64,000 nucleotides of DNA from Candidatus Levyibacteriota bacterium (GTDB taxonomy: Bacteria > Patescibacteriota > Microgenomatia > Levybacterales > UBA12049), in assembly GCA_016186645.1 (NCBI GenBank), contig JACPLF010000005.1:109995-173994 (forward strand), written 5' to 3'. Each line of letters starts with the position of its first letter. Position 1 is the stretch's first letter. Position numbers and translations under genes: made by a program. This document shows, piece by piece, positions 4,631 to 51,159 of this stretch. A model generated the notes under the pieces. It saw only the letters and a program-made list of their open reading frames with translations, was not told the DNA's origin and did no database searches.

Positions 4631-4755
4631 TAAAGCGTGCGTAGCACGCAACAGTCAACCAACAACACTTCGCCTTTGGCGAATTTCAACAAACAACAAA
4701 AATTGTTGTGAGTTGTTTGTTGTAAGTTGAAGGTTGCATGCTGCGCATGCGGTTG
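4631..4755 (+). repeat. IVS-like structured insertion in the 23S 5' domain, copy 1
   Basis: About 85 percent identical to 9214..9333. It contains the hairpins gcgtgcgtagcacgc and caacaaacaacaaaaattgttgtgagttgtttgttg. Confidence 0.6.
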
Positions 4756-6488: not shown

Positions 6489-7190
6489 TAGTTGTAAAAG
6501 TCGACTAAATGCTGGAAAATCCGTACCGTGATTCTGCTTTACAGAACAAACGGTTGCAGTATCTGACGCTACCATGTATTATGGTAATAATGCGATCAGT
6601 GCGGACAATCAGCAGGAAAGACTTGACGAAGAAAGAGCTAGGATTTTTCCTTGCTGGGTTTGTTGAAGGAGAAGGAAGTTTTAATGTCTCGTTACGGCGC
6701 AAGCCTGACTATAGACTCAAATGGCAAGCGGTAATGAGTTTTAATGTTTCGCAAAAAGACCCTACCTTATTAAAAATTTTAAAGGAGGAGCTAAAATGCG
6801 GAATTATTAAAACACGTAAAAGAGACAATCTATATTCCTTTGATGCAACAAATCCTAAGGATCTAATCCAGAAAGTCATTCCATATTTCAAAAAATATCC
6901 AGTTCAATCTGATTCTAAAAAGAATAATTTTTCTATTTTTTGCAAGATAGCAAAATTAATGGAAAAAGGGGAACACAGAAATTTGGCTGGATTAAGGTTA
7001 ATCCTAAAACTTCGAGAGAAAATAAACATTGGAGCAGGAAGAACAAGGAAATATGATATAGATGATGTTTTTTCTAAGTCAGGAATCCTCAGAGACTATA
7101 CGTCGACGTCCCGCTCAGCGGGACATGATATAGTCCGACCTCATGAACGATCATGAGACTCTGTAATCAATCAGAGTACCGCGATTAGCG
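6489..7190 (+). mobile_element. 23S intron 1, inserted after GTAACTATAA (E. coli ~1917); carries a LAGLIDADG homing endonuclease ORF
   Basis: The exon sequence breaks after gtaactataa and resumes with ctgttctaaggtagcgaa. The intervening sequence encodes the endonuclease. Confidence 0.7.
6509..7156 (+). CDS. LAGLIDADG homing endonuclease (intron-encoded)
   Basis: Contains LAGFVEGEGSF and a second, degenerate motif. The probable start is the ATG at 6590 (MRSVRTISRKDL...). Confidence 0.75.
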   Translation: MLENPYRDSALQNKRLQYLTLPCIMVIMRSVRTISRKDLTKKELGFFLAGFVEGEGSFNVSLRRKPDYRLKWQAVMSFNVSQKDPTLLKILKEELKCGIIKTRKRDNLYSFDATNPKDLIQKVIPYFKKYPVQSDSKKNNFSIFCKIAKLMEKGEHRNLAGLRLILKLREKINIGAGRTRKYDIDDVFSKSGILRDYTSTSRSAGHDIVRPHERS

Positions 7191-8280: not shown

Positions 8281-9028
8281 AGACCTATAGCGTTAATTAC
8301 GCTATTAAATGAGCTGTCTATAAATCTAGCTATTTGCTGGAAACTCCGAGTATCTTCAACTACTTGACAAATGACTTATCGTAGAGATACGATATCTCTA
8401 TGTCTAGTGATAATGTTGGAAGTGCGGACAATCAGCAGGCAGCTGGGAAAGAAATTTCTAATGAGTATTTAGCAGGATTCACCGATGGTGAAGGGTGTTT
8501 CTATGTGGGATTTGGTAAGAGAAAAGACCTGCCGCTTAAATGGCAAGTAATTACCGAATTTCATGTAAGTCAAAATCCAGGCGGGAAAAATGTTTTGGAA
8601 GAGTTCAGAGAAAGGCTTGGTTGTGGCTATTTAAAGCCCAATCATGCAAAGAGCTTGAAAGACAAAACTTGGATTTTAATTGTGAAAGATAGAAAGGATT
8701 TAAAAGAAAAACTTATTCCTTTTTTTCAGCAACACAGATTGCACACAAGCAAACAAAAAGATTTTGAAATCTTTGTAAAAGTGCTTGAAAAAATTGAAAC
8801 GGGAAAGCATTTAACTAAAGATGGTTTTAAACAAATCGTTGAATTAGTTTTTGCCACTACCAGGGTAACAAATAAAAGATATTCAAAAGAATCACTTCTT
8901 TCCTAGAGCCTCAGAGACTACATGCTAGATGATGCATTGAATAGTGCGTCAAAGATATAGTCCGAACTGCATGGCGACATGTAGAGCGTATCAGAAATGC
9001 TACGTCATTCGTAAGAATGTAACATATT
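8281..9028 (+). mobile_element. 23S intron 3, inserted after GTCGTAAGACAGT (E. coli ~2595); carries a second LAGLIDADG homing endonuclease ORF
   Basis: The exon resumes with cggtctctatccagga...cccctagtacgagaggac. Confidence 0.7.
8400..8906 (+). CDS. LAGLIDADG homing endonuclease (intron-encoded)
   Basis: Contains LAGFTDGEGCFYV. It shares the 19-nt string agtgcggacaatcagcagg with the first endonuclease gene, in a different reading frame. Confidence 0.75.
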   Translation: MSSDNVGSADNQQAAGKEISNEYLAGFTDGEGCFYVGFGKRKDLPLKWQVITEFHVSQNPGGKNVLEEFRERLGCGYLKPNHAKSLKDKTWILIVKDRKDLKEKLIPFFQQHRLHTSKQKDFEIFVKVLEKIETGKHLTKDGFKQIVELVFATTRVTNKRYSKESLLS

Positions 9029-9213: not shown

Positions 9214-9333
9214 AGCGTGCGTAGCACGCAACAGTCAACAATCAACACAGCCGATTCAATCGGCTTTTCAACAGACAACAAAATTGTTGTAAGTTGTTTG
9301 TGGTAAGTTGAAAGTTGCATGCTGCGCATGCAT
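9214..9333 (+). repeat. IVS-like structured insertion in the 23S 3' domain, copy 2
   Basis: Homolog of 4631..4755. Compensatory hairpin changes (cttcgcctttggcgaa versus cagccgattcaatcggct) show it is a structured RNA. Confidence 0.6.
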
Positions 9334-11960: not shown

Positions 11961-12083
11961 AATAGACGGTAGATGATAGAATGTAGAAGATAGTAATTGA
12001 AGATGGAAAATAGAAAGTAGAAAACTATCCTCTAACTTCTATTTTCAAAATTCTACCATCAATCTTCTATTTTCTATCGTCAT
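11961..12083. repeat. Intergenic palindromic element, copy C (tagaa/ttcta word type); it fills the rpsA-radA gap up to the radA ATG
   Basis: Homologous along its length to 47747..47873. Its arms are mutually reverse-complementary. It ends with the motif ctaacttctattttcaaaattctacc. Confidence 0.65.
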
Positions 12084-13583
12084 ATGAAATCAAAGGTTTC
12101 ATTTGTCTGTCAGGAATGCGGTTATGATTCTCCCCAGTGGCTTGGAAAATGTCCTGAATGCGGAATGTGGAACAGTTTAAAAGAAATTTCCCACTTCGTT
12201 GAAACTTCGCGGGACAAGCAAAATTCAATAGGAAATATCAATAAAAATATAACGCCGAAAAGACTTTCGGAAATAAAGTTTGAGAGAAAACAAAGATTAT
12301 TAACAGGGTTTTCGGAATTGGATACTGTTTTGGGCGGGGGAATTGTGAAGGGAAGCGCAGTTTTACTTGCCGGTGATCCGGGCATTGGTAAGTCAACTCT
12401 GTTATTGCAGCTGGCGTTAAATTTAGCATCAACCTCTTCTCAGAAAACTCAGAATACTCAGCATATCAGAAAATCTGATAATCAGAAGCTCAGACAGTCT
12501 GGCTTACTGAGTTTTCCGAGTGTTCCGAATGTTTTATATATTTCCGGGGAAGAGTCTGAAGAACAAGTCAAATTAAGAGCAGATAGAATTAATCCTTCGG
12601 CTCGCTCAGGATCCAAAACTCATTCAAATTTATTACTTCTCTCAAATACAAATACTGATTTGGTTTGTGGAATAATTGTTAAAGTTAAACCAATGCTTGT
12701 GATTATAGATTCAATCCAAACAATGGAATCGGAAAATGTTTCCGGTCTTTCCGGGTCTGTTGGGCAGGTTCGTTATTCTGCTTTTCAATTTATAAAAATC
12801 GCCAAAACATTTGGGATTCCAATTATTATGGTAGGTCATGTAACAAAAGAAGGAATGGTTGCCGGACCTATGGTTTTATCCCACATGGTTGACACTGTTT
12901 TATTTTTGGAGGGAGAAAAATTTACCGCAACCAGAATTTTGAGAAGTCTGAAAAATAGATTTGGTCCGGTTGACGAAGTTGGAATTTTTGCAATGGAAGG
13001 TGTTGGGGTAAAAGAATTAAACAGTCCCGAACAACTTTTTTTATCAAAACACAATGATAAGACTATTTCAGGAAGTATTTTATCTGTCACCATGGAAGGT
13101 ACAAGAGCATTCTTAATTGAAATTCAAGCACTTGTTTTGTCATCGAAAATTCCAATTCCAAGAAGAGTTGCATCCGGCATTGATTACAAAAGATTGGAAC
13201 TTTTATTGGCGGTTTTGCAAAAACATTGTAATATCCCGCTTTCGGGAATGGATGTTTTTGTAAATGTGATAGGTGGAATAAAACTTTCAGATCCGGCAAC
13301 TGATTTGGCAATTTGCCTTGCGATTATATCGAGTTTCAAAAATATTAATTTATCCCAAAAAGTTGGGATTGGAGAAGTAGGGCTTTTGGGAGAGCTTCGT
13401 AAAGCCAGTTCTTTGGAAAAACGCATAAAAGACGCGCGAAAATTGGGGTTTCGCGATATAATAAGTTCGGACAAATTCAAGACTTTAAAACAAGTTGTTA
13501 ATAGTTTAAGCAATGACCCTCCTTCATTAAAATTACGGAAGGGTCATGCCTCGAAGCTTGAGAAAGAGGCAGAAGGTAATTAA
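12084..13583 (+). CDS. radA: DNA repair protein RadA/Sms
   Basis: N-terminal C4 zinc ribbon, Walker A GDPGIGKST, the KNRFG motif and a Lon-like C-terminal domain. Confidence 0.9.
   Translation: MKSKVSFVCQECGYDSPQWLGKCPECGMWNSLKEISHFVETSRDKQNSIGNINKNITPKRLSEIKFERKQRLLTGFSELDTVLGGGIVKGSAVLLAGDPGIGKSTLLLQLALNLASTSSQKTQNTQHIRKSDNQKLRQSGLLSFPSVPNVLYISGEESEEQVKLRADRINPSARSGSKTHSNLLLLSNTNTDLVCGIIVKVKPMLVIIDSIQTMESENVSGLSGSVGQVRYSAFQFIKIAKTFGIPIIMVGHVTKEGMVAGPMVLSHMVDTVLFLEGEKFTATRILRSLKNRFGPVDEVGIFAMEGVGVKELNSPEQLFLSKHNDKTISGSILSVTMEGTRAFLIEIQALVLSSKIPIPRRVASGIDYKRLELLLAVLQKHCNIPLSGMDVFVNVIGGIKLSDPATDLAICLAIISSFKNINLSQKVGIGEVGLLGELRKASSLEKRIKDARKLGFRDIISSDKFKTLKQVVNSLSNDPPSLKLRKGHASKLEKEAEGN
12441..12532. 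repeat. R-family element, copy R4, inserted in-frame in radA (encodes ~33 extra aa, STSSQKTQNTQHIRKSDNQKLRQSGLLSFPSVPN)
   Basis: Nearly identical to the reverse complement of R3 (cagaaaactcagaatactcag ... tactgagttttccgagtgttccgaa). The insertion sits between Walker A and the downstream RadA core, where other bacteria have none. Confidence 0.65.
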
Positions 13584-17236: not shown

Positions 17237-18535
17237 ATGGTAAGCAAAAAAACCACGCCTCAAAAGGATGAGACTCCGGCAAAATCTGTTGATGAGATAA
17301 TTGGTTCTCCAAAGGAGAATGTTTCTGTAAAACCAGAGCCCTCTGTTATTCCGGCACAAGCTTTACCTATTCAACCAGCGCCAATTTATCCTCAGCCTGT
17401 GTCTTCTTTCGGTTATCGACAAGAACCTACGGTTACTGTTGATGTTTCGGGAATTTTGGATATTCAGCCCGAAGGCCATGGATTTTTAAGACCCAAATTT
17501 ATCCCATCCCAAAGAGATGTTTATATTTCTCAATCCCAAATAAGAAGATTCATGCTTCGTCCTGGAGATTTGATTAAGGGTGTGGGAAGACCTCCAAAAG
17601 ACACAGAGCGATATTTTGGGCTTTTGAAAGTTGAAACAGTTAATGACATGCCAGCGGACAGCTCTCTAAATAGACCATATTTTGATGATCTGACTGCTGT
17701 TTATCCCAAAAAACAAATAACTCTTTCAACCGGTAAGCTGCCTTTGTCAACCCGCATGATTGATCTTATCTCGCCGATTGGATTTGGGCAAAGAGGAATG
17801 ATCGTGTCGCCTCCAAAAGCCGGGAAAACAACAATTCTTAAAGAAATTGCAGCAGGAATTGCGCAAAATTATCCCAAAGCGCATCTCATGGCAGCATTAA
17901 TTGGAGAACGACCTGAAGAAGTCACAGATATTGCGCAATCTGTAAAAGGAGATGTGGTCGCATCGCACTTCGACGAACCGCCAGATGCCCAGACAAGAGT
18001 TGCGGAAATTACTTTGGAGAGGGCAAGAAGACTTGTTGAGATGGGGACAGACGTTATTATTCTTCTTGATTCAATAACACGTTTGGCAAGAGCTTATAAT
18101 TTGTCGGTCGCCCCTTCGGGTCGAACCCTATCGGGAGGATTTGACCCGGCAGCATTGTGGCCTGCGAAAAAATTCTTCGGAGCGGCGAGAAACTGCCAGG
18201 AGGGCGGATCTCTGACAATTATTGGAACCGCTTTGGTTGATACAGGTTCCAGAATGGATGATTTGATCTACGAGGAGTTTAAAGGAACCGGTAATTTGGA
18301 ATTGCATTTGGACAGAAGATTGGCAGACCGAAGAATATTCCCCTCGATTGATATTGCACGTTCAGGGACTCGTCAGGAAGAATTATTATTATCTGAAAAA
18401 GATTTGAAAAAGGTTTCTACAATGAGAAGGATGATTGATATGCTTGGACCTGAAGAACGAACAAGTATATTTGTGGAAAGGCTTTCAAAAACCGCTACCA
18501 ACGAAGAATTCCTAGAGAGTTTGGGAAAGGGATAA
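17237..18535 (+). CDS. rho: Transcription termination factor Rho
   Basis: RNA-binding OB domain, Walker A PPKAGKTT and Q/R loops. 432 aa. Confidence 0.9.
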   Translation: MVSKKTTPQKDETPAKSVDEIIGSPKENVSVKPEPSVIPAQALPIQPAPIYPQPVSSFGYRQEPTVTVDVSGILDIQPEGHGFLRPKFIPSQRDVYISQSQIRRFMLRPGDLIKGVGRPPKDTERYFGLLKVETVNDMPADSSLNRPYFDDLTAVYPKKQITLSTGKLPLSTRMIDLISPIGFGQRGMIVSPPKAGKTTILKEIAAGIAQNYPKAHLMAALIGERPEEVTDIAQSVKGDVVASHFDEPPDAQTRVAEITLERARRLVEMGTDVIILLDSITRLARAYNLSVAPSGRTLSGGFDPAALWPAKKFFGAARNCQEGGSLTIIGTALVDTGSRMDDLIYEEFKGTGNLELHLDRRLADRRIFPSIDIARSGTRQEELLLSEKDLKKVSTMRRMIDMLGPEERTSIFVERLSKTATNEEFLESLGKG

Positions 18536-18576
18536 TCTTTTAAGGTGTCATGCTGAACTAGTTTCAGCATCTCAAA

Positions 18577-18876
18577 TTAAGGCTTGACTGGCGGTCTTGA
18601 GAGTTTCGGTGGTGGGTTTTCAATTACTTCGACTAATTTTTCTCTTGGTGGTGGATTAACTTTGCCTCCTGATCCAGAAAATGGATGCAAGCCTTCTGGG
18701 TTAAAGTTTGTATGTGGTTCTGTGACCGTTAGAGGCTTTTTGTCACGAAGACGTTCTATTTCTTTGTCTCTTCTTCTTCTGGCTTCTGCAGCTCTGTCAG
18801 CTCTTTCTGCCCTTTCTCTTTCTTCTCTTCTTGCAATTTCTGCAACTTTGTCGCTTCTAAGCGTGTATTCTGACAT
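18577..18876 (-). CDS. Hypothetical Arg/Glu-rich protein (99 aa)
   Basis: ORF within the ~1-kb segment bracketed by the duplicated rho 3' end. Confidence 0.35.
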   Translation of the reverse strand: MSEYTLRSDKVAEIARREERERAERADRAAEARRRRDKEIERLRDKKPLTVTEPHTNFNPEGLHPFSGSGGKVNPPPREKLVEVIENPPPKLSRPPVKP

Positions 18877-18986
18877 ATCTTAACTTTATTATAAACTTTT
18901 TTGTCTTTTTGTCAAGCAATGAATTTTTTAGGCCATTTACATTTGTAGGCATTTAACCATTAACAGCGATCGCAGTGTCCAGTTAA

Positions 18987-19322
18987 ATGGCTGGAGAGAC
19001 TGGTGGAGAAATAAACAAAAAAACTACTATACTTTTTGCAGCCATGCTGCATAATACAATTATGAAGAAACAAACAGCGCATTTTCAAGTTATCAATAGG
19101 GGAATTGTTTTTTATTTTACAAAAGAGCCTAAAGGAGGATATGCAGTAGTTGTTCCTTCCTTACCAGGATGTGTTTCATATGGTAAAAATTTTGAGGAGG
19201 CAATGAGAATGATAAAAGATGCTATGCAAGGCTATTTGGCAATCGTAAAAGAAGAAGGACTTTTAATTCCCCAAGAAATAGAAGAAAATAAAGGAAATGC
19301 GGGCTTTGGTCTTGCCTTCTAA
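18987..19322 (+). CDS. hicB: HicB-family antitoxin (UPF0150)
   Basis: GGYAVVVPSLPGCVSYGKNFEEAMRMIKDAMQGYL matches the HicB fold. The true start may be the internal ATG at about 19064. Confidence 0.6.
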   Translation: MAGETGGEINKKTTILFAAMLHNTIMKKQTAHFQVINRGIVFYFTKEPKGGYAVVVPSLPGCVSYGKNFEEAMRMIKDAMQGYLAIVKEEGLLIPQEIEENKGNAGFGLAF

Positions 19323-19429
19323 TGCCAAACTTACCATCTTTAAAACCACGGGAGATTGCTAAACTTCGAGCAATTATTCGCGAAGCGCAATTAACACTGG
19401 ATGACATAGCGAAGTTTTTGAAAAATTAA
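19322..19429 (+). pseudogene. Truncated HicA-like toxin remnant (35 aa, MPNLPSLKPREIAKL...)
   Basis: Its start overlaps the hicB stop (TAATG). Only the N-terminal HicA-like segment is retained. Confidence 0.35.
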
Positions 19430-19599
19430 TCAAATTTATCTCCCAAACAACTCTTCTTACCAAAAGAACTTTTGCCGAGAAACTAGGCATTTGCAGAGTT
19501 TACCTAGATGCTAAGGAAATTGTAGATTGATTTATATCAAACGAAGAATTCCTCGAGAGTCTGGGAAAAGGCTAATTACAGAGAATTAAGATTTACGAT

Positions 19600-19974
19600 T
19601 TAAGAATTAAGAATAGATTTTGTCTTCTGAATAAACCCTTGTAATAATTGATGAGTAAAATTTGCCTGTTTAACTAGATCATCTAAGTCTTTTTTGTTGA
19701 GATATCCCACACCTCTAGCAATAAGAATAAAATTCTTAAGTTCTGTTAATGATCCTTGAGCAGTAAAATAAAATTGAAGTTTTTCTTTATATGAATGTCT
19801 GCCAAAACCCTCTGCGATATTTGCTGTTATTGATGCCGCCGATCTTCTCATCTGATCGATCAAAGAATACATCTCTTGTTTCGGAAAGCCTTGTGTAATT
19901 TTATAAACAAGCAGTACTAATTTATGGCCTTCCTGCCAGACTTTCAAGTCTGTAAAAGACTTAATAGTGCTCAT
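19600..19974 (-). CDS. Four-helix-bundle protein (23S rRNA IVS protein / S23-like family)
   Basis: DLKVWQ...QMRRSAASITANIAEGFGR...AQGSLTEL matches the family signature. It is flanked by inverted 'gatttaagaat' repeats. Confidence 0.7.
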   Translation of the reverse strand: MSTIKSFTDLKVWQEGHKLVLLVYKITQGFPKQEMYSLIDQMRRSAASITANIAEGFGRHSYKEKLQFYFTAQGSLTELKNFILIARGVGYLNKKDLDDLVKQANFTHQLLQGFIQKTKSILNS

Positions 19975-20054
19975 TCTTAAATCTTACATCATAATTCTTA
20001 AATCTCCAAAAAGTTGCTTTTTGGATCCCTTTTTGCTACCATTTTTTCTCAACC

Positions 20055-21330: not shown

Positions 21331-21434
21331 AGGAAAATGAAAAGTTCAAAATGCAAAATTAAAAATTGCAATTCAAAACTTAAAATTTTGGACTATAGCT
21401 TTTCACTTTTAATTTTGAATTTTAAATTTATTCT

Positions 21435-33521: not shown

Positions 33522-36230
33522 ATGACCAAAAACTCAAAGGTAAGAATTAATCAATATAATCCTTCAGAGATTGAAAAAAAATGGCCCCGCAAGAATCTTA
33601 CCTCGAGACTGAGGCTTCCAGCCTCGCGCTCTCGAGGGGCGATCTCACGGGGTAAACAAGAGTACAGTCCAAGTTTGATTGAATCAAAATGGCAATCTAT
33701 TTGGAAGAAAGAGAAGATTTATTCTCCTAATTTGGATAAGGCGAAGAAGCCGTTTTACAACCTCATGATGTTCCCATATCCCAGTGCCGAGGGAATGCAC
33801 GTTGGAAATATGTATGCTTTTACTGGTGCTGATGTATACGGCAGGTTTCAGCGGATGCAGGGTAAGGATGTTTTTGAGCCGATTGGCTTGGACGGATTCG
33901 GAATTCACAGCGAAAACTACGCTATAAAAACAGACAAGCATCCTGCCAAACAAGCTGAAATTTCAGAGAAAAACTTTTACAGGCAGTTGAAAAGTATTGG
34001 AAATGGTTTTGATTGGTCAAGAACTGTTGAGACTTACGACACTTCCTATTACAAATGGACACAGTGGCTTTTTATCCAATTGTTCAGGGCGGGTTTGGCA
34101 TATCGAAAGAAGGCGCCGGTTAATTTTTGCCCATCATGCAAAACAGTTTTGGCAGACGAACAAGTCTTGGATACCCGATGCGAGCGCTGCAATTCACTAG
34201 TTGAGAAAAGAGATTTGGAACAGTGGTTTTTTGCAATCACGAAATACGCGGATCCTTTGCTAGCTAATATTGATAAATTAGATTGGTCGGAAAAAGTCAA
34301 AATCGCACAGCGCCAATGGATCGGGCGATCAGAGGGAACTCTAATTAGATTTAAGATTAAAGATTTAAGAATTAAGAATGAAATTGAGGTGTTTACGACT
34401 CGTGCAGATACATTATACGGAGCCACATTTATCGTTCTTGCTCCCGAGCACCCCGTTTCAGCAGCTATTAAGGATTCCAAGATCAGAGCTTATATAGAAA
34501 AGGCAAAAGAGATTCAAAAAAGCTTAGAAAAAGATAAAGAAAAAACCGGAGTTTTTACGGGTTTGTACGCAATCAATCCTCTTAATGGCGAGGAGATTCC
34601 TGTTTGGATTGCGGATTATGCATTAATGGATTTTGGAACAGGCGCTTTGTTTGGAGATGCGCATGATGAGCGCGATGTAAAATTTGCCAAGAAATATAAA
34701 ATTCCATTAACGCCAACTCTAATCACCGGAGATAAAGAGTTTGATAAAAAAATCTTAAGTCTTGAAGAGTGTTTTACAGGATACGGAACATTAATCGATT
34801 CAGGTCCCTTTACAGGATTGGACTCAAAGCAAGCAATGAAAAGAGTTGCTGAATGGCTCAAGAAGCATAATGCTGGAGATTTTGAAGCCACTTATCATCT
34901 TCGGGATTGGTTGATTTCAAGACAAAGGTATTGGGGACCTCCGATTCCTATGGTGTACTGTAAAAACTGTGCAGATCAAAAACTTTCTTGGTTTTCCATG
35001 GCCGAAGAGAACGAGCATAAAGTATCAAGTAGCAAGCATAAAGTATTAAGCAAAGACGAAAATATACTTGATACTAAATACTTAATACATAATACAGATA
35101 TGGTTGGTTGGTGGCCGGTTCCGGAGAAAGATTTGCCGGTTGAATTACCGTTTATCAAAGATTACAAGCCTTTGGGAATCCATTCGGCAAGCTCAGGACA
35201 GGCAGTCAAAGCACCTCTTGCAAGCCACCCTGAATTTTACAGAACAAAATGCCCAAAATGCGGAATGAATGCAAGAAGAGAAACAGATGTTTCAGACACA
35301 TTTTTGGACTCTGCATGGTATTTCTTAAGATATGTTTCGACAGAGTTTGATTCTGTTCCTTTTGATGAGGCAAGAGTGAAAAAGTGGCTTCCGGTAAACA
35401 TGTATATTGGCGGTGCAGAACATTCGGTTTTGCATCTTTTATACTCTAGATTTATCACAATGGTTTTAAAAGACTTAGGGTTTATTGACTTTGAAGAGCC
35501 ATTCGCAAGGTTCCGCGCGCATGGCTTAATCGTCAAAGATGGCGCAAAAATGAGTAAGAGCCGCGGAAATGTGGTTGTCCCGGATCAATATGTTAAAAAA
35601 TTTGGCGCAGACAGTCTTCGTACCTATCTAATGTTCATGGGCCCTTTCAGTCAAGGTGGAGATTTTAGAGATACAGGAATAGAGGGAACGCACAGATTTT
35701 TGCGCAGAGTTTGGGCTTTAGCGCAAAAATCAATTTCCAATTCAAAACTTCTAATTTCTAATGAGGGAAAAAGAGCGGTTAATAAAACAATTAAGAAGGT
35801 GACTGAAGATGTTTCAAATCTGTCCTACAACACTGCGATTGCGGGCTTGATGGAATATTATAATTTCCTCTCAGTGCAAAAAGAGGTTTCAAAAGAAGAA
35901 ATTGAAGTGTTCTTAAAATTAATTTCCCCATTTGCTCCGCATATTGCCGAAGAATTATGGTCTATCTTGGGTAACAAAACATCTATTCACAAATCTCAGT
36001 GGCCTACATACGATGAAAAATATCTAGTTTCCGACGAAGTAATTATTGCAGTTCAGATAAATGGAAAATTAAGAGAGGTATTAAAAATTAAAAATGAAAA
36101 ATTAAAAATGAAAAATGATATCGAGCAATTGGCTAAAGAGAGTGCTAAGATAAAAAAATACCTGGAAGGCAAACAAATTAAAAAAGTTATTTATGTCGAG
36201 GGAAAAATCATTAACTTTGTGATTGTTTAA
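33522..36230 (+). CDS. leuS: Leucine--tRNA ligase
   Basis: HVGN (HIGH-class) and KMSKS motifs, CP1 editing and anticodon-binding domains. The N-terminus carries a duplicated YNPSEIEKKW/YSPSLIESKW segment around a palindromic insert. Confidence 0.9.
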   Translation: MTKNSKVRINQYNPSEIEKKWPRKNLTSRLRLPASRSRGAISRGKQEYSPSLIESKWQSIWKKEKIYSPNLDKAKKPFYNLMMFPYPSAEGMHVGNMYAFTGADVYGRFQRMQGKDVFEPIGLDGFGIHSENYAIKTDKHPAKQAEISEKNFYRQLKSIGNGFDWSRTVETYDTSYYKWTQWLFIQLFRAGLAYRKKAPVNFCPSCKTVLADEQVLDTRCERCNSLVEKRDLEQWFFAITKYADPLLANIDKLDWSEKVKIAQRQWIGRSEGTLIRFKIKDLRIKNEIEVFTTRADTLYGATFIVLAPEHPVSAAIKDSKIRAYIEKAKEIQKSLEKDKEKTGVFTGLYAINPLNGEEIPVWIADYALMDFGTGALFGDAHDERDVKFAKKYKIPLTPTLITGDKEFDKKILSLEECFTGYGTLIDSGPFTGLDSKQAMKRVAEWLKKHNAGDFEATYHLRDWLISRQRYWGPPIPMVYCKNCADQKLSWFSMAEENEHKVSSSKHKVLSKDENILDTKYLIHNTDMVGWWPVPEKDLPVELPFIKDYKPLGIHSASSGQAVKAPLASHPEFYRTKCPKCGMNARRETDVSDTFLDSAWYFLRYVSTEFDSVPFDEARVKKWLPVNMYIGGAEHSVLHLLYSRFITMVLKDLGFIDFEEPFARFRAHGLIVKDGAKMSKSRGNVVVPDQYVKKFGADSLRTYLMFMGPFSQGGDFRDTGIEGTHRFLRRVWALAQKSISNSKLLISNEGKRAVNKTIKKVTEDVSNLSYNTAIAGLMEYYNFLSVQKEVSKEEIEVFLKLISPFAPHIAEELWSILGNKTSIHKSQWPTYDEKYLVSDEVIIAVQINGKLREVLKIKNEKLKMKNDIEQLAKESAKIKKYLEGKQIKKVIYVEGKIINFVIV

Positions 36231-43746: not shown

Positions 43747-45504
43747 ATGTTAAATGTTAGGCAGCAAGTTGCTTTTGATCTAAGAAGAGTACTTAAAAAT
43801 CTGGTTTCGCCGGATCGAGATATTATTCCTCAGCTTGAGCATCCGATGGATGAGAAACATGGCGATTATGCGTCGAATATTGCCCTAGCAATATTCTCCA
43901 GTTCAAAGTTCCCCTCCTCGGTGGGCAGGCAAGTTCAAAGTTCAAAGTTTGGGTCGCCGATGGAATTGGCAGAGGAAATTGTAAAAAAACTCAATAGTTC
44001 AAGCGCAACTTTGCCAAATATTGCCAAAGTTGAAGCAGTAAAACCAGGCTTCATCAATTTCTATTTATCTCAAAATTATCTAATCACTCTAATGATACAT
44101 ATCATTAGAGTGTCGGAGGGGTATGGAGCCTCAGAAAAGCTGAAAAATAAGAAAATAATGGTTGAGTTTACGGATCCCAATCCATTTAAAGAATTTCATA
44201 TCGGTCATTTGTACAGCAATACAGTGGGAGAATCCATAAGCCGAATGCTGGAAGCCTTGGGCGCAAATGTAAAAAGAGCAAATTATCAGGGAGATGTTGG
44301 AATGCATGTTGCAAAAGCAATTTATGGAATCCAAAATTTAGAAATAAAAATTGAAGATTTAGAAAAAAAATCTTTGAAAGAAAAAATTAAAATTTTGGGA
44401 GAGGCATATGCAAATGGTTCAAAAAAATATGAAGACGATGAAAATGTAAAGAAAGAAATCGAAGAATTGAACAAGAAAATATATGACAAAGAGCCTGATG
44501 TAACGGCACTTTACGAAAAAGGCAGGCAATGGAGTTTGGAATATTTCGAAGAGATATATAAACGCCTTGGAACCAAATTCGACTTCTATTATTTTGAGTC
44601 GGAAGTTGGAAGAGATGGATTAAAATTAGTAAAAGAATATTTAAAAAAAGGCATTTTTGAGGAAAGCCTTGGCGCAGTAATATTTCCTGGTGAAAAATAT
44701 GGATTGCACGACAGGGTATTTATAAATTCGCTTGGACTTCCGACATATGAAGCAAAAGAGTTAGGTCTTGCATTAAAAAAATATCAAGATTTTAAGTTCG
44801 ATCAATCAATAGTTGTAACGGGAAATGAAATTATTGGTTATTTCAAGGTCATACTTGTTGCTTTGGGAGAAATAAATCCTGAGCTGGCAACCAAAACGAA
44901 GCATCTATCTCATGGAATGGTCAGGCTTCCAACCGGAAAAATGTCTAGTAGGACTGGAAATATTTTAACAGGAGAATGGCTTTTGGATGAAGCAAAAAGC
45001 CTCTTAAAAGGGAAGTTTAATGAAATGGAAGAAGATATTTTGGAAAAAGTTACAGTTGGGTCTATAAAATACGCGCTTTTGAAAAGCAGTCTTGGTCGTG
45101 ATATTGAGTTTGATTTTGAAGAATCAATAAATATTCAAGGCAATTCTGGGCCTTATTTGCAGTATACATTTGCTCGGACGCAAAGCGTCCTTGCTAAAGC
45201 AGAAAAAGATTTAAGATTTAAGATTAAAGATTTAAGAATAGAACCGGAAGAAATATCTCTGCTAAGAACATTGAGTCGTTTTCAGGAGATTGTAGAAGAG
45301 GCAGCTAATAAATTTGCGCCGAATCTTTTGTGCAATTATCTTTTTGATCTGGCCCAAAAGTTTAATTTATTCTACCAGAGGCGCAAGATTCTTGGGGAGA
45401 TTGGAGATATTAGGGATTTTAGGATTGCCTTAACAAAAGCAGTGGGACAGGTTATCAAAAACGGTCTCCATTTGCTGGGGATTGACTCTCCGGAGAAGAT
45501 GTAG
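43747..45504 (+). CDS. argS: Arginine--tRNA ligase
   Basis: FHIGHLYS (HIGH) and a DALR-type anticodon-binding C-terminus. A TGTGGTACAAT -10 box immediately upstream suggests leaderless translation from the ATG at 43747. Confidence 0.85.
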   Translation: MLNVRQQVAFDLRRVLKNLVSPDRDIIPQLEHPMDEKHGDYASNIALAIFSSSKFPSSVGRQVQSSKFGSPMELAEEIVKKLNSSSATLPNIAKVEAVKPGFINFYLSQNYLITLMIHIIRVSEGYGASEKLKNKKIMVEFTDPNPFKEFHIGHLYSNTVGESISRMLEALGANVKRANYQGDVGMHVAKAIYGIQNLEIKIEDLEKKSLKEKIKILGEAYANGSKKYEDDENVKKEIEELNKKIYDKEPDVTALYEKGRQWSLEYFEEIYKRLGTKFDFYYFESEVGRDGLKLVKEYLKKGIFEESLGAVIFPGEKYGLHDRVFINSLGLPTYEAKELGLALKKYQDFKFDQSIVVTGNEIIGYFKVILVALGEINPELATKTKHLSHGMVRLPTGKMSSRTGNILTGEWLLDEAKSLLKGKFNEMEEDILEKVTVGSIKYALLKSSLGRDIEFDFEESINIQGNSGPYLQYTFARTQSVLAKAEKDLRFKIKDLRIEPEEISLLRTLSRFQEIVEEAANKFAPNLLCNYLFDLAQKFNLFYQRRKILGEIGDIRDFRIALTKAVGQVIKNGLHLLGIDSPEKM

Positions 45505-47746: not shown

Positions 47747-47873
47747 CTAGACGATAGAAAATAGAGGGTAGAAAATAGTAATTTGAAGATGGACAATAGA
47801 AGATAGATCCATTGTCAATCTTCTACCTTCAAAATTCTACTATCCAGTTTCTATCATCTATCGTCAAAAATTT
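47747..47873. repeat. Intergenic palindromic element, copy D; it fills the gap up to the ndk ATG
   Basis: Homolog of 11961..12083 (gatagaaaatagagggtagaaaatagtaatttgaagatgg ... cttctaccttcaaaattctac ... ctatcgtca). Confidence 0.65.
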
Positions 47874-48895: not shown

Positions 48896-49912
48896 GCGTG
48901 GTGCAAAACTCGTTGTAGATTGATTTGACAATCAAAAAGGCAGTTGACACAATGAAAATGTTGAAGAAACAACGTTTTCTTTCCAAAAGGAGGTGTTAAC
49001 TGCCCATGACTTTTGTACCAAAATTACCGCATAAAGTCCAGTATCTTTTTCATAGCTCATATCCTTTTGTTGCAAAACTTTGTGAGAAAACCAAGATTGA
49101 GAAATTTATCGGTGGAAGACCCGGCTATGATAAAGACTTTTTGTTCTCTCTTCTTTTAATGAAACGGGTAACCAATTGGAGTTTCAGAACTATTGCTGAA
49201 ATGGGAGGAATCTCTCATTCAACCCTTGTCAGGGCAAATACATATTTCTTAACCCATCATGTATATGAAAAATTCTTCCTTTTCTTAGTTAAAAAAGCCT
49301 ACGGGAAAGGATTAATTAAAGGTAAGTTTGTAGCCATGGATTCAAGTTTTGTTCAGACCTTTTCAGGCAAACAAGAAGAAGGAAGTGAAGGATGGAATGG
49401 TTTCAAAGAAGCCTATGGATTCAAGCTCCATTTACTTATTGATTGTGAAACAAAATTTCCCATTGCTTTAACAATAACCAATGGACTGGCAAGTGACAAT
49501 ACTTTAGCAATCCCATTGTTAAAAAGAGCAAAGAATTGGTTGAAAAAATGCGGTTATGTTCTTGCAGATAAAGGATACGATGATGGAGAAATTATTGATT
49601 TCATTGTAAAAGCTTTCTCCGCTAAAGCAGGAATACCAATCAGGAAACACAATAGAGGAAAGAACTATTCATGGAGAGGAGCAACAAAAAACTTTCAGTT
49701 GAAAGCCAAAGGAAGAACATTAAAAAAGAGTGTTTACAACAGAAGAACTGCTGTTGAGAGGGTTTTCTCTGTTCTTAAAAGGGTATTTCATTTAGGAAAA
49801 GAAGAGGTACGGGGAATTCTTTCTTTTGCCAAACAGGTCTATCTGACCTTAATTTGTTACATGCTTAAGCTCTTTGACATTGCTATATCAAGCTAATGGA
49901 TGTTTTGCACCA
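48896..49912. mobile_element. IS4/IS5-superfamily insertion sequence with 12-13 bp target duplication
   Basis: Terminal inverted repeats gtggtgcaaaac / gttttgcaccag. Flanking direct repeat GGGTTACTTTT(T)C at 48883..48894 and 49914..49926. The target lies inside a hairpin gtcaacc...ggttgac. Confidence 0.65.
49006..49896 (+). CDS. DDE transposase (IS4/IS5 family)
   Basis: DDE_Tnp_1-like motifs FVAMDSSFV ... YVLADKGYDDGEI ... AVERVFSVLKR. Confidence 0.8.
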   Translation: MTFVPKLPHKVQYLFHSSYPFVAKLCEKTKIEKFIGGRPGYDKDFLFSLLLMKRVTNWSFRTIAEMGGISHSTLVRANTYFLTHHVYEKFFLFLVKKAYGKGLIKGKFVAMDSSFVQTFSGKQEEGSEGWNGFKEAYGFKLHLLIDCETKFPIALTITNGLASDNTLAIPLLKRAKNWLKKCGYVLADKGYDDGEIIDFIVKAFSAKAGIPIRKHNRGKNYSWRGATKNFQLKAKGRTLKKSVYNRRTAVERVFSVLKRVFHLGKEEVRGILSFAKQVYLTLICYMLKLFDIAISS

Positions 49913-50053: not shown

Positions 50054-50772
50054 CTATTTTCTCCTGAATTTTTCTTTTATTCTTTCCTGATCAAGCAGGT
50101 AGGCTTTTTTGTCTTCTTGGAGCTTCTTTTCTAAAGACTGTACCAAAACTCTAAGTAGATAATCCGTTTTATTAATCAACTCAATAAATATCTCGTAAGT
50201 TAAGTCTCGGGCTTTGATTTTAGATAGAGGAGAATAAAGGAGAGTTAGAGGACGGTAAAGGAAAAGACTATCTGAATCGGGAGGAGCTTTCTTACCCGGC
50301 ATAACTTTTTCCTTTATATCTCCTTTAGTATCCTTTAATTGTCCTTTAGGTTTGAGCGCGGTATTCAAATCTTTAAGATTAATACCAATGCCTTGAAGAC
50401 TTAATCCTGGTTTGCTGGGCAGAAATCCATCTTCAGTGAGCTCTCGGATATCTCCTTTGACTTCCTCTAAAGACCCCTGGCTAAAACTTATAAATTCTAT
50501 ATAAGCAGAGGTATTTGAGCGTTTATAGCCTTCCTCAATATTTCGGACAACACTTCGTCCGGCATCATCCAATTGAGCTTTTCTTCGATATTCTGATTTC
50601 GGAAGACTTGATGTGAATGTTCTTATTAAAAAACGAAGTAAAACAGTATTTGATCATTGGACAAGATATCTATAGCCTTGAGGGTGTTGCCAAACCCTAG
50701 AACTTTGTAAGGGCTTACTCGGAACTGAAAGTTCTGCCATTGTTTTGGCGATTAGATCTTTGGCGATATCAG
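50054..50772 (-). pseudogene. Second four-helix-bundle (IVS-protein family) gene, frameshifted
   Basis: The C-terminal frame gives ...LPKSEYRRKAQLDDAGRSVVRNIEEGYKRS...GSLEEV. The N-terminal piece (MTDIAKDLIAK...SSRVWQ...) is in another frame and ends in a stop. Confidence 0.45.
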
Positions 50773-51159
50773 TCATTCTTTATACCTAAAGCTCAGGATG
50801 AAAATTGCTAAGATGATTACCTCGGACAAAAGACAGTATTGGCAGAAGGCGTGGAGAATAAATGCTTGGGTGAAAAAGAAGTAAATAGAAGCAAGTACTC
50901 CTAAGAAAGCAAAGAATTTAAAATATCTGGGAAATTTACCGCTTAAAAGTACAAATATCAAAAAGAGAAAATAGAAAGCCCCCAGAAGAGCTACGGGAAT
51001 GCCAAAAATCGTTGAAAATTGGCTGACCAGTACGGTTTCGCAGCCTTTGGCGATAGCGCATGGCGGAATAACGTTTTTATAGTGTAAGATGGTTAAATAG
51101 GAGCTGTCAAAAAATCCAGCGATTGAGAGAATTAGCAAAAAGGTTTTTTTAAACGTCAT
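50773..51159 (-). CDS. Vitamin K epoxide reductase (VKOR) family protein
   Basis: Loop cysteine pair PPCAIAKGCETV and the TM CxxC motif CQYC. Four TM helices. Confidence 0.7.
   Translation of the reverse strand: MTFKKTFLLILSIAGFFDSSYLTILHYKNVIPPCAIAKGCETVLVSQFSTIFGIPVALLGAFYFLFLIFVLLSGKFPRYFKFFAFLGVLASIYFFFTQAFILHAFCQYCLLSEVIILAIFILSFRYKE

Follow-up and report, generated by a model that had tools for sequence, protein, structure and literature searches.

ORFs of the S23p family (PF05635) are carried by intervening sequences (IVSs) within the 23S rRNA genes of Leptospira, Coxiella burnetii and Brucella, where the open reading frame (ORF) lies inside terminal inverted repeats. In Coxiella, the IVS has a 28-bp terminal stem in which RNase III cleavage was mapped, and tandem GACAGAT heptamers, with a copy number that varies between strains, are located just upstream of the S23p start (PMC4990558). 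ORFs for IVS proteins (IVPs) are also found in rRNA insertions of the Candidate Phyla Radiation (CPR) (PMC11270868). Heptamer over-representation, short tandemly repeated repetitive sequences (STRRs) and TAACTGA repeats are described in the literature (PMC4679880; Mazel 1990 and Mrazek 2007 as cited by others), and the GGGAATC arrays of Xanthomonas often occur as convergent pairs (PMC4692102). Here, we describe a cassette from a Candidatus Levyibacteriota bacterium, located in a 64,000-nucleotide stretch of contig JACPLF010000005.1 (the window), in which an IVP gene forms the loop of a stem made of inverted heptamer arrays, and we consider its relationship with arrays of the same heptamer that are read in frame within leuS and argS.

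The IVP ORF (19600-19974, minus strand) encodes a four-helix-bundle protein of 124 aa, which matched both PF05635 (23S-rRNA-IVS-protein; E=9e-35, 119.5 bits with a cutoff of 33.8) and TIGR02436 (E=3e-32, 111 bits, cutoff 24). The nearest solved structure is that of XCC0516 from Xanthomonas campestris (PDB 2GSC, with 5 chains in the entry). A first-pass annotation, made from the DNA letters alone, had proposed that this gene was flanked by inverted repeats, and its coordinates were right within 1-2 nt: the best inverted pair, 19581-19614 with 19973-20006, was 34 nt long and 85% complementary, with a spacing of 358 nt. On the sense (minus) strand, the 5' arm (19973-20006) reads GAGATTTAAGAATTATGATGTAAGATTTAAGAAT and continues into the ATG start codon, while the 3' arm (19581-19614) reads ATTCTTAATTCTTAAATCGTAAATCTTAATTCTC and takes in the final four codons along with the TAA stop; the left arm sequence at 19583-19614 is gaattaagatttacgatttaagaattaagaat. 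Both arms, as well as the sites in leuS and argS, are tandem arrays of ~4.7 units of the heptamer AAGATTT (variants AAGAATT and AAGATTA). In the predicted fold of the sense-strand RNA, the arms were paired in both the minimum free energy and the centroid structures, so that the entire ORF formed the loop and the AUG was placed at the stem's top (z = -2.3). A 9-bp hairpin, TCCAAAAAG-TTG-CTTTTTGGA (20005-20025, unstranded), abuts the 5' arm and is kept along with the cassette in related strains.

The cassette has an M23 peptidase gene on one side and hicB/rho on the other. The possibility that the IVP is Avd, the accessory protein of diversity-generating retroelements (DGRs), was rejected, as the scores were below the cutoffs (PF22296, 23.8 bits with a cutoff of 40; NF033474, 23.7 bits with a cutoff of 80); the ORFs scanned beside the cassette encode a HicB-like protein and an M23/LysM peptidase, and reverse transcriptase was not among them. 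A promoter and terminator scan around the cassette gave nothing exceeding the shuffle expectation, and no PADLOC defence model matched.

The resemblance to the 23S rRNA IVS extends to the ORF family, to the position of the ORF within terminal inverted repeats with a stem of ~28-34 bp (34-nt arms in this case) and, for Coxiella, to tandem heptamers of variable copy number immediately upstream of the start codon. Unlike the 23S rRNA IVS, however, the cassette lies outside rRNA genes, the 23S rRNA gene of the window being at 4263-~9500, and none of the 80 related loci described below (0/80) was in rRNA. Both arms here are visibly heptamer arrays, and excision by RNase III is a result from Coxiella only. 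The cassette works like an rRNA IVS and lies outside the location that defines that class; it is therefore not a member in the strict sense.

To see how general this layout is, species-representative genomes were scanned, which gave 408 relatives of the protein, and the best 80 loci were examined; all were from Patescibacteria and together they contained 85 homologous ORFs, with the 434 other ORFs of the same 80 loci serving as controls. An inverted match between the 60-nt flanks, with a score of at least 10, was present in 50/85 IVP ORFs (59%) compared with 13/434 controls (3%), and near-perfect adjacent heptamers were found upstream of 68/85 IVP ORFs and 105/434 controls. In a typical locus, a heptamer array reaches the ATG (typically ...GATTTATG) and, from the stop codon onwards, the reverse complement is seen (TAAATC... 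or TGAATC...). Among the 50 loci with a match, the stop codon marks the start of the 3' arm or is overlapped by it in ~32, and the purine-rich arm is the 5' arm in 42. Arm length ranges from 10 to 36 nt. The unit depends on the lineage, being GATTTAA in Microgenomates and GAATTAT, GGAATAT, AGTATTA, GAAGTAA, ACGAATT and others elsewhere. Within a cassette, the arms nevertheless covary, as an arm matched its own partner with a mean score of 10.7, compared with 7.4 for swapped partners and with 8.2 for the highest mean among 30 permutations. The inverted heptamer arms are thus a conserved property of the IVP gene family, and it is the structure of the arms, not their sequence, that is conserved: units vary among lineages and the two arms of one cassette match.

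The same inverted-heptamer layout was found outside Patescibacteria. A tblastn search for plasmid homologues returned 31 records, mostly from Nostocales, and most of the 18 that were inspected, from Cyanobacteriota and Bacteroidota, had this layout with other units: (AGGAGTC)n arms in Nostoc, Trichormus and Aulosira, (GGGAACA)n in N. edaphicum, (AAAGGGA)n in Geminocystis, (GGGTGTA)n in Calothrix brevissima, (AGGAGAT)n in Picosynechococcus, where the homologue lies within a cmr2-cmr3 operon, and (AAGGTTT)n in Riemerella (Bacteroidota). The suggestion of a cassette with terminal repeats, made initially for this locus alone, could therefore be generalised to most of the related loci and to these plasmids. 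In three of the cyanobacterial plasmids (L091, L095 and L228), the IVP cassette was observed inside CRISPR-cas operons and co-oriented with them, as cas6-IVP-cas4, cmr2-IVP-cmr3 and IVP-cas4, which agrees with the earlier report of cas loci as a site of IVP genes (PMC3936711). No close relative of the IVP was found in viral contigs.

Within the closer relatives, the cassette was in the same position in all three related genomes available (3/3, three only), beside the M23 peptidase gene and, in the ancestral arrangement, directly against the end of rho, with flanks that have diverged by ~20%. In the window, a 1040-nt insertion (18537-19576) with a HicB-like ORF (18987-19322) now parts rho from the cassette; two 37-nt copies of the rho 3' end flank it (18500-18536 and 19540-19576, 89% identical), and it is absent from the related contig L085. 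Just past rho, at 18547-18571, there is also a palindromic element, GTCATGCTGAACTAGTTTCAGCATC, which matches a kind of element that occupies, in translated form (CHPELVSGS...MLKQVQHD), the linker of the ArgS orthologues P0142, P0151 and P0167.

The other part of the problem is the presence of the arm heptamer within two essential genes. The 26-mer AGATTTAAGATTAAAGATTTAAGAAT, which had been reported as common to leuS and argS, was confirmed to be exact at 34347-34372 (leuS) and 45214-45239 (argS) and to be translated as RFKIKDLRI in LeuS and ArgS alike. It did not occur in any of 100 dinucleotide shuffles and, when up to 3 mismatches were allowed, it was found at those two sites and in the left arm of the cassette, and nowhere else in the window. 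The leuS array (34343-34379, plus strand) occupies codons 276-286 (RFKIKDLRIKN). In LeuS, the Pfam match to the connective peptide 1 (CP1) editing domain starts at residue 264, and the array falls in this domain's first hairpin. The argS array (45206-45239, plus strand) occupies codons 493-503 (KDLRFKIKDLR), in a hypervariable loop that follows helix 1 of the DALR domain.

Comparison with orthologues showed that the LeuS hairpin is hypervariable among 60 proteins. The closest orthologues (66-69% identity) have FKIQNSKFKI at this position, others have FSIFNFQFSI, and ~10/60, at 55-62% identity and including one Roizmanbacteria protein, carry KDLR[FL]KN or DDLRFKN. The DNA of five orthologues consists of arrays, for example (TTCAAAA)4 in L096, (CAATTTT)4 in L097 and the AAGATTT type in L001 and L002, and all of the LeuS arrays are anchored at conserved F-K/S-I codons, which indicates an origin in situ. 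The ArgS loop varies greatly in length and content among 120 orthologues; KDLRFKIKDLRI is present in this genome only, and the loops of other lineages are formed by (AAAGTCA)4, translated as KSQKSKVK, by (GAATTAC/GAATCAT)n, translated as ITNHELRIMNYE, or by translated palindromic elements. The idea that the peptides are lineage-specific held for ArgS, where 0/120 orthologues carry its peptide, but was not supported for LeuS, for which the refuting observation named in the first-pass annotation, the same peptide in distant orthologues, was partly made. That a simple-sequence element lies in frame in coding DNA was supported as a description, with pure heptamer arrays of other units in the corresponding LeuS and ArgS loops of other Microgenomates. 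Clean insertions in leuS and argS were ruled out, as the segments are equal in length to those of orthologues and of E. coli LeuS, and the sites are hypervariable loops. In six LeuS orthologues (P0016, P0017, P0020, P0045, P0059 and P0060), an alpha/beta-hydrolase domain (PF06821/PF12697, ~170 aa) was observed to be inserted exactly at the array hairpin.

The identity between the two sites had initially been taken to demand a special explanation. In (AAGATTT)n, TAA falls in every frame once per 21 nt; the frame that stays open is DLRFKI, and the codon that follows must change, for which AAGATTA (TAA to AAA) is a one-step fix and the one used here. The shared frame and most of the 26-mer can therefore be explained by the unit itself, as its TAA leaves one open frame and must be mutated, so that arrays of one unit are forced to the same frame and nearly the same sequence. 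An exact 26-mer is impossible by chance in random sequence, but two arrays of one unit make it far less remarkable, and the arms share their unit with leuS and argS because AAGATTT is the commonest heptamer unit in Microgenomates.

The arrays in leuS and argS are also not isolated in the window. When period-7 repeats were counted with a run detector and compared with block shuffles, 15 runs were detected compared with 0.05 in the shuffles; ten period-14 runs corresponded to the same arrays (2 x 7), every other period was at background, and Tandem Repeats Finder gave ~30 period-7 rows. The units are diverse and AT-rich (AAGATTT, ATAGAAA, GAAAATT, AAATCTC, AATTTCT, ATTAAAA and others), and most of the arrays have units unrelated to the cassette arms. 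Ten arrays are in frame in seven genes, encoding ribosomal protein S1, a DUF11 protein, LeuS (three arrays), ArgS (two), an M16 peptidase, a sortase and the product of an unnamed gene.

Beyond the window, the 20-mer AAGATTWAAGATTTAAGAAT was present in at least 120 metagenome stretches, and the contexts among the matches listed were intergenic DNA, ORF-less hairpins, two IVP starts and unrelated proteins. A strict first search for inverted partners of the metagenomic arrays missed variant units; with a looser motif, 15 of 118 arrays (13%) among the matches listed were ORF-less hairpins, compared with a background of 1.2%. At least 29 long ORFs of unrelated proteins contained the 20-mer, always read as DLRFK among the matches listed, including LeuS again, a recurrent ...YHIDCYR protein (TsaE-like by eye), prepilin leaders and a methyltransferase. 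Arrays of the AAGATTT type were also seen as protein N-termini (L001, 8405-8432; metagenome loci L151, L215 and L157), such as MINDLRFKI..., the prepilin leader peptides MIKDLRFKNK-GFTLVELL and the N-regions of signal peptides.

The explanation that we favour, and consider on balance probable, though only just, is that a free-standing cassette of the IVS type coexists with separate, independent heptamer repeats in leuS and argS. The loop of the long stem coincides exactly with the ORF, the arms of this stem are the inverted tandem AAGATTT/AAGAATT arrays, and in the transcript these arms would pair as an interrupted helix of ~34 bp. By analogy with the Coxiella S23p IVS experiments, this helix could hide the start codon and serve as a substrate for RNase III; cleavage would then either release the ORF RNA or inactivate it, and would remove the cassette from the surrounding transcript. 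For leuS and argS, the best reading is that the copies are heptamer simple-sequence repeats (SSRs) of the same unit family in tolerant loops. They would be members of a genome-wide SSR population, the CPR counterpart of the cyanobacterial STRRs, which may arise by slippage and turn over in situ within such loops.

Several observations weigh against this explanation. The stem model gives no reason for the arms to be heptamer arrays. In a wobble test, the mismatches between arms comprised 12 of the G-U type and 12 of the A-C type, a negative or uninformative outcome with no signal of selection on the sense RNA, and therefore arm complementarity could be kept at the DNA level. RNase III was not found among the Pfam-scanned ORFs of the window, although its gene may be outside it. 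The arrays in Pseudanabaena and on PCC 7120 gamma look direct, not inverted, in the 70 nt examined, and one Calothrix homologue has no arrays. The leuS and argS arrays and the cassette arms all share the end ...GATTTAAGAAT, so copying between the sites may have occurred. Finally, the cassette DNA is 96% identical to that of L085, compared with 79% for rho, and ~90% identical to that of L086, compared with 80%, with the elevated identity limited, in the comparison with L085, to the cassette and ~60 nt upstream. This peak hints at exchange or conversion, for which the favoured explanation has no need; constraint at the nucleotide level is the alternative.

This excess conservation over the flanks is the best argument for some mobility. 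It counts in favour of the reading of the first-pass annotation that the cassette is a small mobile element with the heptamer arrays as terminal inverted repeats (TIRs), moved by a host or unlinked enzyme, and that leuS and argS hold solo arms or footprints. We consider this unlikely. It would agree with the common ...GATTTAAGAAT end, with the ORF-less hairpins of the same unit and with homologues in cas operons, on plasmids and in CPR rRNA insertions (PMC11270868). The IVP is also 70-80% identical across Levy-, Davies- and Roizmanbacteria compared with 55-69% for LeuS, some genomes have several copies, and many IVP contigs are only ~1 kb long, suggesting assembly breaks induced by repeats. 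However, the cassette has no linked transposase or integrase, and no direct repeat that would represent a target-site duplication was seen outside the arms, where the flanks read ...TAATTACA up to one boundary and CAAAAAGTT... from the other. Three genomes with diverged flanks share the cassette locus, with the M23 peptidase gene on one side and rho on the other, which also argues against mobility, as does the lack of a close relative in viral contigs, and arm sequence varies among lineages while the protein is conserved, which is the opposite of what is expected for a recognised TIR. Footprints in leuS and argS are implausible because a 450-bp insertion there would be lethal, and distant orthologues also have the LeuS array. 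In the vicinity of IVP genes, solo arrays were not enriched for the local arm unit (15.6% compared with 12.8% with swapped loci), and so a derivation of the leuS and argS arrays from the cassette, as solo copies, was not supported.

Another possibility, less likely still, is that the IVP and the heptamer arrays form one protein-nucleic-acid system, in which the protein would bind in a 7-nt register, regulate itself through its own arms and possibly cause the birth or spread of arrays across the genome. The association of gene and array in Patescibacteria, Cyanobacteriota and Bacteroidota, plus Coxiella from the literature, would fit such a system, as would the weak similarity of the IVP to the nucleic-acid-binding DGR protein Avd and the array length of ~4.7 units. 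Heptamer repeats have been reported in cyanobacteria, Bacteroidetes and Xanthomonas, and IVP homologues were seen in all three (plasmids, Riemerella and XCC0516); the Xanthomonas strain that is the source of XCC0516, with its five-chain 2GSC structure, has 186 GGGAATC arrays, 70 of them in inverted pairs (PMC4692102). On the other hand, the unit sequence varies freely while the protein is 50-80% identical, arm length extends from 10 to 36 nt, and the units of most window arrays are unrelated to those of the arms. Lastly, a by-product of AT-rich composition and of low-complexity coding rich in Lys, Ile, Leu and Arg, with no repeat process, would be in keeping with a G+C content of ~38% and with the K/I/L/R-rich peptides, but it is hardly credible: it was already refuted by the absence of the 26-mer from shuffles, by the enrichment of periods 7 and 14 only (15 period-7 runs compared with 0.05) and by the pure 4-unit arrays at the same sites in orthologues.

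With the favoured explanation of a free-standing cassette and independent repeats, the arrays can be compared with other known repeats. Like cyanobacterial STRRs and prokaryotic heptanucleotide SSRs, the window arrays are dispersed tandem 7-nt repeats of ~3-8 units that are strongly over-represented and occur in intergenic DNA, in 5' untranslated regions and as convergent pairs capable of forming hairpins. Unlike STRRs, they are in a CPR host, many units coexist, and a large share is in frame inside essential genes; they are also AT-rich and diverse, in contrast to the STRR consensus units CCCCAGT, TTGGTCA and CAACAGT. The literature searched, in which subscription journals are mostly outside coverage, contained no heptamer repeats of this kind in CPR bacteria and no link of free-standing IVP genes to inverted heptamer arms, of which an earlier description is possible. 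In heterocystous cyanobacteria, an STRR reportedly lies within the gene for RNase P RNA (said to have been described by Vioque in 1997), and it resembles the leuS and argS arrays in being a heptamer array that a functional gene tolerates within a variable element of permissive structure; its host is an RNA helix, whereas here the hosts are LeuS and ArgS protein loops and hairpins in the 23S rRNA region.

MITEs (miniature transposable elements with inverted repeats) and repetitive extragenic palindromic (REP) elements are, like the present hairpins, short dispersed inverted-repeat structures with ORF-less versions; in contrast to them, the arms here are tandem simple-sequence arrays without a fixed sequence, and no target-site duplication or cognate transposase was found. 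In Borg elements, tandem repeats, described as a feature of these extrachromosomal elements, produce disordered protein regions (PMC9879509). Like the leuS and argS arrays, the Borg repeats are fast-evolving tandem nucleotide repeats expressed in frame within proteins, but the unit here is 7 nt, which is not a multiple of 3; stops therefore recur each 21 nt and coding arrays stay short.

Other structures were noted in the window. An ORF-less hairpin of (ATAGAAA)n and (TTCTATT)n at 11976-12074 (unstranded) is of the same structure class as the cassette with a different unit, and another, with AAAATGC/AAAATTA units, lies between two tRNA-Ala genes (21333-21429, unstranded). Arrays of (ATAGAAA)n with ~7 units were seen in two intergenic regions, at 11976-12024 and 47754-47807, just upstream of gene starts at 12084 and 47874. 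Two near-identical hairpins of ~110 nt (4640-4750 and 9220-9330), with arms made of the heptamer-like units CAACAAN/TTGTTGN, are located one inside the 23S rRNA and the other close to its 3' part and upstream of the 5S gene, and resemble ORF-less IVS-like elements. The 23S rRNA gene is itself interrupted, as Rfam matches only model positions 15-2044 and 2097-2466, and it contains LAGLIDADG homing-endonuclease ORFs at 6509-7156 and 8400-8906, which are typical CPR rRNA insertions. A thioredoxin-domain ORF (1116-1796) lies between inverted repeats of 28 nt (794-821 and 1848-1875, 82% complementary) made of period-8 units (CTTGATTT). The abundance of heptamer repeats had at first raised the possibility that the window was cyanobacterial, but this was rejected, as the highly iterated palindrome HIP1 occurs only 3 times in the window, LAGLIDADG ORFs interrupt the 23S rRNA gene, and Levybacteria gave the best protein hits. 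A second, longer PF05635-like gene (50054-50776, minus strand), without heptamer arms, adjoins a DDE transposase ORF (49006-49896); it had been recorded as a frameshifted copy of the family at 50054-50772, and its presence beside the transposase was correct, but it is a single frame with one in-frame TGA.

The association of IVP genes with inverted heptamer arrays across phyla is the most interesting result of this analysis. If it is true, the IVS would be a general cassette, a heptamer-array stem with a four-helix-bundle ORF, that lives mostly outside rRNA, which would reframe the ~30-year-old IVS puzzle and provide a simple genomic signature for finding such cassettes. We know of no function for the S23p/IVP proteins and of no origin for the heptamer/STRR repeats, and the association could link these two orphan phenomena in a way that would be testable in tractable cyanobacteria. 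Taken to its furthest, and as a long shot, S23p/IVP proteins and heptamer arrays might together make up a single conserved system, shared by Patescibacteria, Cyanobacteriota, Bacteroidota and Pseudomonadota, with the protein or a selfish cassette underlying the heptanucleotide excess long observed in prokaryotes, including the spread of such repeats into rRNA and into the loops of essential proteins. For CPR bacteria, it would mean that their genomes write fast-turning 7-nt repeats into the surface loops of essential enzymes (LeuS, ArgS, S1), where the repeats would affect alignments, phylogenies and annotation as well as assembly breaks.

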